Origin: Gammaproteobacteria bacterium
GTDB taxonomy: Bacteria; Pseudomonadota; Gammaproteobacteria; Ga0077554; Ga007554
Reading direction: 5' to 3'
DNA length: 64,000 nucleotides
Assembly (NCBI GenBank): GCA_033717875.1
Contig: JADDKJ010000002.1
Location: 2,820-66,819 of the forward strand
The translations under genes and the position numbers were made by a program. The first letter of the stretch is position 1. Every line of letters begins with the position of its first letter. Positions 9,498-59,540 of the stretch are shown one piece after another. The notes beneath the pieces were generated by a model. That model saw only the letters and a list, made by a program, of their open reading frames with translations, was not told the DNA's origin and made no database searches.

Positions 9498-10895
9498 ATG
9501 TCCAACAATACCACCCACCGCACCGAAAAAGACAGCCTGGGCGAATTCCAGGTGCCGGCGGACGCCTGGTACGGCATCCAGACCGCGCGCGCCGTCGCCA
9601 ATTTCCCTATCAGCGGGCGCGGGCCGGACCGCGATTTCGTCGTCGCCCATGTGCGCATCAAACGCGCCGCCGCCATCGCCAACCAGCAGGCCGGCTGGCT
9701 GGAGGATTCGCTTGCCAATGCCATCGTCGCGGCCTGCGACAAGATTATCGCCGGGGAATATCTCGACCAGTTCGTCGTCGATCGTTTCCAGGCCGGCGCG
9801 GGCACCAGCCACAACATGAACAGCAACGAGGTGATCGCCAACCTCGCCAACGTCGCCCTCGGCGGCCGTTGTGGCGTGTACAAGCCGGTGAATCCCAACG
9901 ACCATGTCAACATGGGGCAGAGCACCAACGACACCATTCCCACCGCCATCCGCCTCACCGCGCTCGCCAAGTTGCCGCGCCTGGTCGACGCCGTGGAAAC
10001 GATGGCTGGCGAGTATGCGCGCATTGCCGCCGACGAGGCCGATACCGTCAAGAGCGGCCGCACACACCTGCAAGACGCCGTGCCCACCACCATCGGCCAC
10101 GAGTTCAACGCCTACGCTTGGACTCTACGCCGCTGCCGCCAGGGCCTGGAGCAGGTCCGCGCCCCGCTATGCGAGATCGGCCTGGGAGGCAGCGCCGCCG
10201 GCACCGGGCTGAACACCGCGCCGGACTATGCCGCCAATGCCGCCACGGAACTGGCCCGGCTGAGCGGCGAACCGATTCGCCCGGCCAGCAACCTGGTGGC
10301 GCAGATGCAGTCGATGCACGATATCCAGCGCGTGTCCTCGGCGATCCGCGATCTCACCCTGGAACTGATCCGCATCGCCAACGACATGCGCCTGCTGTGC
10401 TCCGGCCCGCGCACCGGCCTGGGCGAGATCGTGCTGCCGCCGGTGCAACCCGGCTCCAGCATCATGCCCGGCAAGGTCAATCCGGTGATGTTCGAGATGC
10501 TCAATCAAGTGTGCTACCAGGTATTGGGGCAAGACACCGCCATCACCGCGATGACCCAGGCCGGACAGTTGGAGCTGAACGTGATGATGCCGGGGCTGGG
10601 ATCGGCGCTTTTCGACGCCATGGATTGGCTGACCAACGCCATCAACGCCGCCACCGAACGCAATCTCAAGGGCCTGAAGGTGGATCGCGAACGCTGCAAG
10701 ACCTTCCTGCATAGCAGCGTGGGACTGGCCACCCTGCTCAACACCCGCATCGGCTACGCCGCCGCCGCCGAGATCGCCAAAACCTCGGAAAAAACCGGCC
10801 GCCCCGTGCGCGATATCGTCGCCGAACAAAAACTGATGACGGCGCAGGAGTTCGATGCGCTGGTGCTCAAGGCGGCGCGGGAGGGGAATATTTGA
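9498..10895 (+). CDS. aspA: Aspartate ammonia-lyase (class II fumarase/aspartase family)
   Basis: ORF 9471..10895. Start MSNNTT at 9498 with AAGGAG 5 nt upstream. GSSIMPGKVNPV signature, AACDKIIAGEYLDQFVVDRFQAGAGTSHNMN closely parallels E. coli AspA (AACDEVL...QFPVDVYQGGAGTSVNMN). Confidence 0.85.
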   Translation: MSNNTTHRTEKDSLGEFQVPADAWYGIQTARAVANFPISGRGPDRDFVVAHVRIKRAAAIANQQAGWLEDSLANAIVAACDKIIAGEYLDQFVVDRFQAGAGTSHNMNSNEVIANLANVALGGRCGVYKPVNPNDHVNMGQSTNDTIPTAIRLTALAKLPRLVDAVETMAGEYARIAADEADTVKSGRTHLQDAVPTTIGHEFNAYAWTLRRCRQGLEQVRAPLCEIGLGGSAAGTGLNTAPDYAANAATELARLSGEPIRPASNLVAQMQSMHDIQRVSSAIRDLTLELIRIANDMRLLCSGPRTGLGEIVLPPVQPGSSIMPGKVNPVMFEMLNQVCYQVLGQDTAITAMTQAGQLELNVMMPGLGSALFDAMDWLTNAINAATERNLKGLKVDRERCKTFLHSSVGLATLLNTRIGYAAAAEIAKTSEKTGRPVRDIVAEQKLMTAQEFDALVLKAAREGNI

Positions 10896-10904
10896 GGCAC
10901 CCTT

Positions 10905-10991
10905 TGATTTTTGCCTTTCTCCATTTCTCAATCACTTGCCGTGATTGAACAATGCCGGCACATCGGTAGGCCGAGGAATCCCTGAATTATT
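10905..10991. mobile_element. Repeat family A MITE, 5'-truncated copy spanning aspA-cupin convergent junction
   Basis: TGATTTTTGCCTTTCTCCATTTCTCAATCACTTGCCGTGATTGAACAATGCCGGCACATC...GGAATCCCTGAATTATTCAGAGGTTCC matches the internal and right-end portions of the 20726 copy. 10932-10991 are read as the last codons and stop of the cupin ORF. Confidence 0.75.
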
Positions 10992-11424
10992 CAGAGGTTC
11001 CTCGCCTTCTTTCACAGACAGCTTTTGACCAACAACACCCCCATAAAATACGATAATTTTTAATGGGCTTTGGCCAACATTGCGGCCATTGTGCAGAGCA
11101 TTCGTCACCTCCGCCAGAGCTTCACCGGCCGTAAATCGCTTTGCTTGACCTGTTTTGAGCTGAACCTCAAGCTCACCCTCAAGCACCATGCCAAATGAAG
11201 GCACCGGGTGTGAATGCCAGCCCGTTTCACCACCTGGGGCAATCTCTACGACCACGCCGGTAATTTCCGGTTTTCCTTCTGGATAAACGATCGGCTGACC
11301 ATCCCAACTCTTATCCGTTTTGAGAACCGTGGAGACTTTTACAGCGCTGGATAGCTCAATGGCATGGACCGAAAAAGACGACACCAAGCAGGAAACAACC
11401 GAAAACAAAATGCTTTTATATTTC
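10932..11424 (-). CDS. Secreted cupin-domain protein (C-terminus and stop codon derived from MITE repeat)
   Basis: ORF 10932..11492(-). Probable GTG start at about 11424 (GGGAGG RBS, 6-nt spacer) giving signal peptide KYKSILFSVVSCLVSSFSVHA. Cupin motif GETGWHSHPVPSFGMVLEGELEV. Last ~20 codons (NNSGIPRPTDVPALFNHGK*) are encoded by the repeat-A element at 10905-10991. Confidence 0.65.
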
Positions 11425-11488
11425 ACGCGAATTCCTCCCTTTATTCTCACGGTTTTTTTTAGTTTTTGCTCCAAAGCCCGCACGCCCA

Positions 11489-11518
11489 ACAAAAAAGGCG
11501 GAGAATCTCTTCTCCGCC
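11489..11518 (-). terminator. Rho-independent terminator after fba (bidirectional hairpin)
   Basis: Minus strand reads GGCGGAGAA-GAGA-TTCTCCGCC followed by TTTTTTGTT. Plus strand has the same stem followed by TTTGCGTTT. Lies between fba stop (11548) and the cupin gene. Confidence 0.75.
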
Positions 11519-11547
11519 TTTGCGTTTACTTCCTAACAAGTAAAGAC

Positions 11548-15526: not shown

Positions 15527-15553
15527 GGAAGCTCTGAATAATTCAGAGGTTCC
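15527..15553. repeat. Solo family A terminal hairpin (27-nt perfect palindrome GGAAGCTCTGAATAATTCAGAGGTTCC) in pgk-gap spacer
   Basis: Identical to MITE termini. A degenerate version (GGGAAGCTCTGACACATCAAAAGTTC) occurs at 12669-12694 in the pyk-fba spacer. Confidence 0.7.
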
Positions 15554-20725: not shown

Positions 20726-20875
20726 GGAAGCTCTGAATAATTCCATCCTGGAATTCTCAGAGCACGAAAAGCAAAAATGTGATTTTCGCTTTTCTTCATT
20801 TTTCAATCACTGGCCGTGATTGAAAAATGCCGGCACATCCTTGTGCCATGAAACCTCTGACACATCAGAGGTTCC
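20726..20875. mobile_element. Repeat family A: about 150-bp Correia-like MITE with hairpin termini GGAAGCTCTGAATAATTCC...GAAACCTCTGACACATCAGAGGTTCC (full copy, metK-ahcY spacer)
   Basis: Same element occurs reverse-complemented at 34898-35048 (about 93% identical), flanked by TTTA on both sides in both copies (possible target duplication). Internal palindrome TTCAATCAC-TGGCC-GTGATTGAA. Confidence 0.8.
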
Positions 20876-20911: not shown

Positions 20912-20990
20912 TTCTTCGAGGAGCGTTGCAACAGGGCTTTACCCTGCCAGGCTCGAAGAAAACATTCCACTTGCAACAACGGCGCTCGTT
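20912..20990 (+). promoter_or_regulatory. SAH riboswitch (S-adenosylhomocysteine-responsive) in the ahcY 5' leader
   Basis: TTCTTCGAGGAGCGTTGCAACAGGGCTTTACCCTGCCAGGCTCGAAGAA...CAACGGCGCTCG. P1 CTTCGAG/CTCGAAG, conserved GAGGAGCGYUGCAAC and AGGCUCG segments, and GAGCG/CGCUC pseudoknot partner AACGGCGCUC just upstream of the ahcY RBS. Matches the SAH-riboswitch consensus as recalled from the literature; RF01057 is the Rfam model I believe corresponds to it, and a Rfam search is needed to confirm. Confidence 0.75.
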
Positions 20991-21010
20991 CATCCATGGA
21001 GAATATGCCA

Positions 21011-34897: not shown

Positions 34898-35048
34898 GGA
34901 ACCTCTGAATAATTCAGAGGTTCCGCAGCACAGGGATGTGCCGGCATTGTTCAATCACTTGCCGTGATTGAACAATGAAGAAAAGCAAAAATCGCATTTT
35001 TGCTTTTCGTGCTCTGAGAATTCCAGGATGGAATTATTCAGAGCTTCC
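34898..35048. mobile_element. Repeat family A MITE, full copy in inverse orientation (GNAT-htpX spacer)
   Basis: Reverse complement aligns end-to-end with 20726-20875. Left terminus here is the perfect 27-nt palindrome GGAACCTCTGAATAATTCAGAGGTTCC. Flanked by TTTA/TTTA. Confidence 0.8.
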
Positions 35049-48599: not shown

Positions 48600-48630
48600 G
48601 CCGTTGTCACCTGTTCATGATCCAATGCGC

Positions 48631-48784
48631 CTCTGAGAATCGGTTCAAGATCTCGATCAAGGGATGCAGCGCAAGGCGAAAGTGGCCGAAAAAGCGGAGC
48701 ATACACGGAGTATGTGAGCATTTTGAGGACACTTTCAACGCCGCGATGCGCCCTTCAGCGAGATCTTGAACAGGTTCTGAGAGG
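48631..48784. mobile_element. Repeat family D: about 155-bp long imperfect-palindrome element (MITE-like) in pilJ-chpA spacer
   Basis: CTCTGAGAATCGGTTCAAGATCTCGATCAAGG...CGAAAAAGCGGAGCATACACGGAGT...CATTTTGAGGACACTTTCAACGCCGCGATGCG...CAGCGAGATCTTGAACAGGTTCTGAGAGG. About 55-bp imperfect terminal inverted repeats. A second copy at 55201-55356 shares the central core. Confidence 0.65.
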
Positions 48785-48803
48785 CTAATGAGAACCTTGC
48801 CAT

Positions 48804-55171: not shown

Positions 55172-55200
55172 GTCATCACAACCTTCATATAAAAATGGGC

Positions 55201-55356
55201 ACCTCTAAAAATTCGATCAAGGCGCGAGGGCAAGGCCCCCTGTTTATAAAGGGGGGGCGAAAAAGCGGAGTGTACACGCAGTCTGCCGCTTCCCGGCCCC
55301 GCATTTTGAGCCACTTTTCAACGCCGCCATCGCGGCTTTAGCGGATTTTTAGAGGT
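55201..55356. mobile_element. Repeat family D copy in surA-lptD spacer
   Basis: ACCTCTAAAAATTCGATCAAGGCGCGAGGGCAAGGCC...CGAAAAAGCGGAGTGTACACGCAGT...CATTTTGAGCCACTTTTCAACGCCGCCATCGCGGC...GGATTTTTAGAGGTAC. Core about 80% identical to the 48631 copy. Outermost termini differ. Confidence 0.65.
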
Positions 55357-55362
55357 ACCCTC

Positions 55363-57754: not shown

Positions 57755-58795
57755 ATGCCCGACCGCCTGAATGAACTCACCCGCTGGCTGCGTACCGATG
57801 CCGGCCTGCCCTCGTTCGAAATCGCTCCCGCCTCGTCGGACGCCAGTTTCCGCCGTTATTTCCGCGTCCGCTATGCCGATCAGAGCCGCATCGTCATGGA
57901 CGCCCCGCCGGACAAGGAAGATTGCCGCCCGTTCATTTCCGTGGCCCGCGCCTTCCATGCACTGGGCCTGAACGTCCCCGAAATACTGGAAATCAACCTG
58001 GATCAGGGGTTTTTGCTGCTGAGCGACCTGGGCGATCGCCAATATCTGAGCGAACTCAACGAAACCAGCGTTACTTCGCTGTATGGCGATGCCATGCACG
58101 CACTGCGCATGCTGCAACATCCGGCCGCCCGCCGCACCGGTCTGCTGCCTCCTTATGACCGCGCCTTGCTGCTGCGCGAGATGGCGCTGTTCCGTGACTG
58201 GTTCATGGAAAAGCATCTGGGACTTACGCCAACTCAGGCGTTGGACAGCGTATTCGACACCCTCGCCCGTTCGGCACTGGAACAACCGCAGGTATGGGTG
58301 CACCGCGATTACCACTCGCGCAACCTGATGATCACCGCGCACGGCAACCCCGGCATTCTCGACTTCCAGGACGCCGTCACCGGCCCCGTGACCTACGACC
58401 TGGTGTCGCTGCTGCGCGACTGCTACATCGCCTGGCCGCGCGAACAGGTGGAAAGCTGGGTTGAAGAGTATCACGGCAGAGCCCTGGAAGCCGGCATCAT
58501 CGAAGATGTGGGGACGGCGCAATTCCTGCGCTGGTTCGACCTGATGGGCGTGCAGCGCCACCTCAAGGCCATCGGCATCTTCGCCCGGCTCAACATCCGC
58601 GATGGCAAACCGGGCTACCTCAAGGATATTCCGCGCACGCTGGGATATGTGGCAGACGTCAGCAGCCGTTACCCGGAGCTGGACGGTTTGAGCAGGCTGA
58701 TTCAGGAAGAGGTGCTACCGAGGATGGCACTACCGGCGCAATACGGCTATCGCCTATTGCGTCCTACACGGACTGGTGAGCGCCCGGTTGACTGA
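57755..58795 (+). CDS. amgK: N-acetylmuramate/N-acetylglucosamine anomeric kinase AmgK-like (APH-family phosphotransferase)
   Basis: ORF 57443..58795. From Met 57755, MPDRLNELTRWLRTDAGLPSFEIAPASSDASFRRYFRVRYADQSRIVMDAPPDKEDCRPFISVARAF closely parallels Pseudomonas AmgK (...ASSDASFRRYFRW...VMDAPPPQEDCRPFV). Brenner motif HRDYHSRNLM and ILDFQDA. Divergent from lptD as in Pseudomonas. Confidence 0.85.
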   Translation: MPDRLNELTRWLRTDAGLPSFEIAPASSDASFRRYFRVRYADQSRIVMDAPPDKEDCRPFISVARAFHALGLNVPEILEINLDQGFLLLSDLGDRQYLSELNETSVTSLYGDAMHALRMLQHPAARRTGLLPPYDRALLLREMALFRDWFMEKHLGLTPTQALDSVFDTLARSALEQPQVWVHRDYHSRNLMITAHGNPGILDFQDAVTGPVTYDLVSLLRDCYIAWPREQVESWVEEYHGRALEAGIIEDVGTAQFLRWFDLMGVQRHLKAIGIFARLNIRDGKPGYLKDIPRTLGYVADVSSRYPELDGLSRLIQEEVLPRMALPAQYGYRLLRPTRTGERPVD

Positions 58796-59346: not shown

Positions 59347-59540
59347 ACCAAATTATGCTTATATTATTTTTGATATGTCAAGGGGCGTGACTCTTAAGCG
59401 GTATGATGTCTTGTTTAACCGGCAGCACGTAGGGCGAAAAACCTGCTGGCATTGTGCCAGATGAGACAACAACCATTCGGCGCAATACGGCTATCGCCTA
59501 TTGCACCCTACGCGGGCTGCAGATACTTGTTGGATTGCGT

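Follow-up and report, generated by a model that had tools for sequence, protein, structure and literature searches.

Does the protein encoded by the cupin gene beside aspA owe its C-terminus to a mobile repeat? The window, a stretch of 64,000 nucleotides from a Gammaproteobacteria bacterium assembly (contig JADDKJ010000002.1), carries aspA, the gene for aspartate ammonia-lyase, on the plus strand (9498..10895), and the cupin gene converges with it on the minus strand (10932..11426). A sequence-only reading of this locus had proposed that insertion of a MITE, truncated and occupying 10905-10991, supplied the last 20 codons of the cupin gene together with its stop codon. It is very likely that this MITE abuts a horizontally acquired gene for a periplasmic cupin that has lost its native stop, giving rise to a read-through tail of 21 residues that ends at a TGA within a palindrome of the element.

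As now present, the cupin CDS has a GTG start and 164 codons followed by TGA. The start is preceded by GGGAGG, rated as a good ribosome-binding site, and the N-terminus, KYKSILFSVVSCLVSSFSVHA, resembles a Sec signal peptide when judged by eye. Residues 60-129 match Cupin_2 (PF07883) at 53.4 bits, compared with a gathering cut-off of 27.2, and the tail falls outside this domain. The reading frame is intact and retains every residue that is invariant in the family, including the metal-site His. The protein is identical to P0001, a cupin domain-containing protein recorded at NCBI from a Gammaproteobacteria MAG, and a PDB sequence search gave a weak cupin match only (3es1, E = 8e-4) that is silent on the C-terminus. 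The C-terminus is ...KEGEEPLNNSGIPRPTDVPALFNHGK immediately before the stop, and the tryptic peptide of the tail is EGEEPLNNSGIPRPTDVPALFNHGK.

Searching 5.8 billion proteins for cupin homologs gave 725 matches, and the best 120 were examined for their C-termini. Only one homolog exceeds 73% identity, and it is this very protein, recorded in an NCBI MAG under the label Gammaproteobacteria bacterium. Among the best 120 of the 725, 82 are 143 aa long, and in 96 the chain runs exactly 17 residues past the conserved FY, compared with 38 in the window protein; these 96 proteins end exactly at the position where the element starts, which answers the earlier reading's question of where homology ends. 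In the alignment, the homologs end in ...SVKEG plus two residues and the window protein runs on past KEGEE. Nucleotide homology to the three nearest homologs extends through GTGAAAGAAGG(C/T)G and stops at GTGAAAGAAGGCGA, and beyond this point the three homologous genes each have two more codons and then a stop. From the homolog ends and the DNA alignment together, it is clear that residues 1-143 (10998..11426, minus strand), which end ...FYGGVVGQKLSVKEGEE and equal the modal length of the family, constitute the whole ancestral protein and that PLNNSGIPRPTDVPALFNHGK and the TGA are extra.

These 21 extra codons (10935..10997, minus strand) were assigned to the element by alignment and frame analysis, and the stop (10932..10934, minus strand) is supplied by the element in the 3' arm of its central palindrome, as judged from the ORF list and a palindrome match. 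The claim that a repeat element had remodelled the 3' end of the protein is thus borne out, as the family ends at residue 143 and both the tail and the stop lie in the element, although the count is 21 codons rather than 20. The open reading frame crosses into the MITE at the exact terminus of the element, where the terminal GGAA overlaps codons 142-143 (GAG GAA), the native end of the protein, and the exact breakpoint is therefore ambiguous by 4-5 nt.

The repetitive nature of the region is apparent within the window. A 27-nt hairpin, GGAACCTCTGAATAATTCAGGGATTCC, found on the minus strand at 10975-11001, recurs with no more than 3 mismatches at 15527-15553 and 34898-34924 (0 expected from shuffles), and a 19-nt palindrome, CAATCACGGCAAGTGATTG, at 10929-10947 has relatives at 20804 and 34952 (0.04 expected by chance). 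A repeat finder and a seven-way alignment placed 10905-11001 against the right-hand ∼97 nt of an element of ∼151 bp. The copy is truncated, as described previously, but alignment to the full copies puts its right end at 11001 and not at 10991. The copy (plus strand) covers consensus positions ∼56-151 with 88.5% identity over 96 nt; it retains the whole right terminus, TTCAGAGGTTCC, but lacks the left ∼55 nt. It lies between the convergent genes as first reported, with the stop of aspA 9 nt from its truncated end. Match searches and folding identified the terminal hairpin, which is the right inverted repeat folded on itself (10975..11001) and now forms cupin codons 142-151, and the central palindrome (10929..10947) that holds the stop codon, consistent with the earlier observation that the cupin frame passes through both structures.

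The window contains four copies in all. Two are full-length, one on the plus strand (20726..20875) flanked by the duplication TTTA/TTTA and located between the stop of an upstream gene and an SAH riboswitch, and one on the minus strand (34898..35048) flanked by TAAA/TAAA, as defined by alignment and flank analysis. The fourth, at 15527..15553, is a 27-nt mini derivative composed of the two termini only (GGAAGCTCTGAATAATTCAGAGGTTCC), recognised by match search and alignment. A search of a genome collection with the interior pattern added three copies, located in two related MAGs, and at least 120 stretches of metagenome DNA contained a match to the 18-nt terminus. BLAST with the consensus recovered 57 full-length copies with 73-99% identity from the window, MAG and metagenome loci, most of them in metagenome contigs. 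The element begins GGAAGCTCTGAATAATTC and ends TTCAGAGGTTCC, and its interior consists of five hairpins. The inverted repeats GGAAGCTCTGAA and TTCAGAGGTTCC are kept in all copies, and the ∼151 bp include no transposase gene and no internal frame longer than 51 codons. No description of this family could be found in the sources searched, although it is widespread in environmental metagenomes: nothing exceeded the Rfam gathering thresholds at the element (the only matches in the window being the SAH riboswitch and a tRNA), distant blastn of the element against PLSDB plasmids gave no match, and a full-text literature search for the terminus sequence returned unrelated primers only.

Several variants were seen among the copies. 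A short form of ∼85 nt, in which consensus 1-40 is joined to 108-151, recurs in L011, L019, L027, L047, L071, L079, L127 and L128, and parallels the long and short forms of the Correia elements. The 27-nt mini element is either the smallest mobile form or a product of internal deletion; a copy in L010 is flanked by a perfect CTAA/CTAA duplication. In the copy at 34952-34970 the central palindrome has its loop in the opposite orientation to that at 10929-10947 and 20804-20822 (GGCAA vs TTGCC in element orientation), which is a hairpin-loop flip. The SAH riboswitch (20912-20994, plus strand, 68 bits) is 36 nt downstream of the full copy at 20726-20875, and this MITE is therefore in the leader or promoter region of a riboswitch-controlled gene. 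The window also contains two copies (48629-48785 and 55197-55360) of a second, unrelated element of ∼157 nt with 35-nt inverted ends (GCCTCTGAGAATCGGTTCAAGATCTCGATCAAGGG...), and a 42-nt direct repeat, 90% identical, at 58734-58775 and 59478-59519, the copies being 744 nt apart.

As the left end of the cupin copy is deleted, target-site duplication was judged on the 54 other copies with readable flanks. Identical 4-nt flanks are present in 39 of the 54, and 8 more differ by one base. The 39 identical pairs include TTAA (15), TTAG (8), CTAA (4) and CTAG (1), giving the consensus YTAR; by position, the 54 flanks have T or C in 52, T in 42, A in 48, and A or G in 51. YTAR, duplicated over 4 bp, is also the target of IS5 (PMC5009759). 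The element shares this duplication with IS5, and its terminus begins GGAAG; it differs in having no transposase and an interior made of five hairpins. In the metagenome locus L017, the identical 18-nt terminus adjoins an open reading frame with the DUF772 and DDE_Tnp_1 domains of an IS5-family transposase. L017 is the only fetched locus with a transposase beside the terminus, with one end recovered, and none was found in the window's own lineage. On the evidence of its target duplication, the element is best classed as an IS5-type MITE. The same 18-nt terminus, following YTAR, also heads unrelated interiors in L014/L029, L042/L053/L107, L067/L090/L120 and L040/L126. The occurrence of one terminus on several unrelated interiors suggests sister MITE families mobilised by one type of transposase, and these families probably use the same IS5-type enzyme. 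A MITE family of uncultured proteobacteria is thereby brought to light, with a terminus common to several sister families.

The direction of derivation follows from this mobility: copies with target-site duplications occur in numerous unrelated settings, so the repeat is the source of the tail rather than its product. That the repeat was instead derived from the cupin gene, or that the likeness is a coincidence, is virtually impossible given the 57 full-length copies with duplications in unrelated surroundings and the best 120 of the 725 homologs, 0 of which carry any of the tail motifs sought. Element-free orthologs sharing the tail, the finding that the earlier reading had said would count against it, are thus absent from these 120, and the idea of a gene-derived or coincidental repeat was rejected on the flank duplications and the tail-less homologs.

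The reading frames of the element account for the form of the tail. In essentially all copies, translation into the element from either end runs into TAA or TGA within 3-4 codons in frames 1 and 3. Frame 2 has no stop for 21-51 codons, and from the right end its local consensus is EEPLNNSEVPRHRDVPAFFNHGK followed by a stop. The cupin gene reads the element in frame 2, the one open inward frame. One random junction in three would therefore be expected to yield a tail of this kind, and no selection need be invoked.

In 9 of the 54 copies, the flanking TAR serves as the stop codon of a frame 90 codons long or longer, and 6 of these 9 frames are Pfam-verified, namely those for a protein with an N-terminal methylation motif (typical of pilins), cytochrome c1, Hsp70, a GGDEF-EAL protein, a thioredoxin-TPR protein and a tRNA pseudouridine synthase. 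A preference for stop codons was rejected in a comparison with 1591 YTAR sites in the same loci, of which 13% end a frame this long (p = 0.26), and the habit therefore follows from the target motif with no additional preference. Two other candidates for deep fusion to an open reading frame were seen among the 54 copies, L024 and L036, but neither has a Pfam match and L024 looks spurious, so the cupin gene is the only verified fusion among the copies examined. It is doubtful that the family is built for harmless landings at gene ends and serves as a recurrent source of C-terminal tails. Features that fit such a design are a YTAR target that includes TAA or TAG and is preserved by the duplication, and termini that both carry stops in two frames and, in the third, a conserved peptide (EE[PT]L[NI]NSE[VF]PR...). 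If this were true, the conserved frame-2 peptide would be appended repeatedly to unrelated proteins.

A possible route for the loss of the native stop can be proposed from the junction. On the cupin strand, the intact terminus is flanked by GCGA, which is native cupin sequence (GGC GA-). GCGA does not conform to YTAR and no copy has G at flank position 3 (0/54), and the junction is therefore not that of a plain canonical insertion. The MITE adjoins the end of the gene as first described, but a simple insertion there is not borne out. The most economical route would begin with canonical insertion at a stop of the form xTAA, which would yield ...GGCG-AGGAA-TA-AGGAA-CCTCTG; slippage between the two AGGAA repeats would then cost 7 nt, the stop among them, and move translation out of the closed frame 1 into the open frame 2. 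Under this route, the native-stop allele would be GTGAAAGAAGGCGAGGAATAA, and the allele with a canonical insertion and a retained stop would be ...GAATAAGGAACCTCTG. Insertion followed by a 7-nt slippage fits the bases exactly. The alternative would be a non-canonical insertion, joining GCGA to GGAACC. Among the genomes examined, no intermediate was found in which either the whole element or the stop had been kept. By either path, with the native stop after ...KEGEE gone, the ribosome would enter the element in its sole open inward frame, add 21 residues and halt at the TGA in the central palindrome. The MITE remnant, its left third deleted, would double as the 3' UTR of the cupin gene. The native 3' flank of the gene has been lost, and the junction begins 9 nt past the aspA stop.

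The nearest relative found, a Pseudomonadota MAG with an aspA gene 96% identical to that of the window, has aspA and fba adjacent with a spacer of 217 nt. The cupin gene is absent from this spacer, and a MITE remnant was sought there and rejected, as local alignments scored no better than shuffled sequence. Homology between the two genomes resumes at the fba intrinsic terminator (11494..11521, minus strand), which is directly upstream of the cupin gene, marks the right limit of the sequence common to both and bounds the cupin insert on the outside. The segment 10998-11470 has the appearance of a bare cassette, a ribosome-binding site plus an open reading frame, with the stop of aspA on one side and the terminator of fba on the other. 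A REP-like palindrome (GTAGGGTGCGTCTCACGCACC...GGTGCGTGAGACGCACCCTAC) was observed in related MAGs (L005, 5467-5517; L003, 6826-6876), and one of these copies falls within the aspA-fba spacer of the cupin-less relative.

The cupin gene has a GC content of 49%. The GC3 of its body is 47%, whereas that of aspA and fba is 85%, that of pyk 78% and that of the genome about 80%. Low GC3 and absence from the nearest relative mark the gene as lineage-specific, and its composition and context indicate that it is probably a recent horizontal acquisition between aspA and fba; since synteny is not conserved in deeper relatives, composition is the basis for the polarity of this event. The truncated MITE is nearest to copies in this lineage and in the MAGs of its relatives (83-88% identity), which makes it probable that gene and element came together inside this lineage.

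An independent Logan assembly (L004, from SRR12901017) reproduces the order aspA, truncated element, cupin gene and fba exactly across both junctions. Repeats are classic breakpoints in MAG assembly and this copy of the element is truncated on one side, features that would suit a repeat-collapsed contig or a frameshift error, but the base-for-base match over both junctions in a different sequencing run argues against an artefact and makes this explanation highly improbable. L004 differs from the window by 4 substitutions in the cupin CDS, all of them synonymous and none in the tail (0), which points weakly to purifying selection on the cupin.

It was also considered that the cupin gene might be a decaying, unexpressed relic of horizontal transfer, with the tail a symptom of erosion that affects no protein. 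The contrast in GC3 between the gene and the genome, its absence from the nearest relative and the truncation of the adjoining MITE would be in keeping with a relic, as would the failure of a search for a convincing cupin promoter and the position of the fba terminator directly upstream. This is nevertheless unlikely, since the frame is intact with all family-invariant residues and the metal-site His in place, the ribosome-binding site is good, and only synonymous changes separate the cupin CDS of the two assemblies, although four sites are weak evidence.

An AF2 model of the cupin, built on a shallow alignment, shows a moderate cupin barrel with a mean pLDDT of 62.7, and the tail, at pLDDT 27-36, has no secondary structure; as the model is moderate overall, disorder of the tail is weakly supported. 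The 3' end of the cupin mRNA is predicted to fold at -43.7 kcal/mol (z -4.5). Strong folding is expected because the element is rich in hairpins, and it is common to every copy. No intrinsic terminator was predicted between the convergent aspA and cupin genes. Relative to the element consensus, five clustered substitutions at 10964-10972 abolish the fourth hairpin (GGCACATCCCTGTGCC to GGCACATCGGTAGGCC) and five residues of the cupin tail are altered; loss of this hairpin was seen only in the now-coding cupin copy.

This folding, the clustered substitutions with their altered residues and the presence of the fusion in two assemblies could be taken to mean that the fusion is adaptive, i.e. that the tail or the hairpin-rich mRNA 3' end has been selected for mRNA stability, RNase III processing or protein behaviour. 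That is very unlikely: with one of the three inward frames open, chance suffices to produce a tail like this, the prediction for the tail is disorder, no other cupin among the best 120 of the 725 homologs has one, and the strong folding belongs to every copy of the element. The tail is most likely a tolerated, disordered and selectively near-neutral by-product.

The locus is a clean, datable case of a non-autonomous transposon rewriting a protein C-terminus and a 3' UTR, where the modal length of the cupin family gives the ancestral end and the sister genome the empty locus. For genome annotation, it means that MITEs of this family at gene ends can lengthen open reading frames by 21-51 codons. 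No new biological question is raised, because MITE-derived C-termini have been documented in Coxiella, Neisseria and the enterobacteria. In Coxiella burnetii, QMITE1 and QMITE2 overlap the 3' ends of several genes, and in strain Dugway QMITE2 adds 33 aa to the product of enhC; a stop lies immediately downstream, and an indel decides whether a stop precedes the QMITE (PMC5896051). The cupin gene resembles this case in that a MITE adjoining the 3' end of a functional gene gives rise to C-terminal residues, but the element family and host differ, the MITE at the cupin being truncated, with an IS5-type terminus and a YTAR duplication.

The Correia or NEMIS elements, with which the cupin locus had been compared, have a 24-bp TIR, with TA at the termini and as the duplication (PMC2229807, Table 1), and a 107-bp Correia form has been found fused to open reading frames, as have ERIC and RU-3 (PMC2229807). 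The consequence is the same, but the likeness ends there: the terminus of the cupin MITE, GGAAGCTCTGAATAATTC, has no sequence relationship to that of Correia elements, and its duplication is the 4-bp YTAR of an IS5-type MITE. Rickettsia palindromic elements (RPE) and the ERIC and RU-1 fusions likewise provide examples of a mobile repeat translated within a host protein (PMC2229807). However, RPE insert internally and in frame without a stop (PMC2229807), whereas the MITE at the cupin gene replaces the C-terminus and supplies the stop codon.
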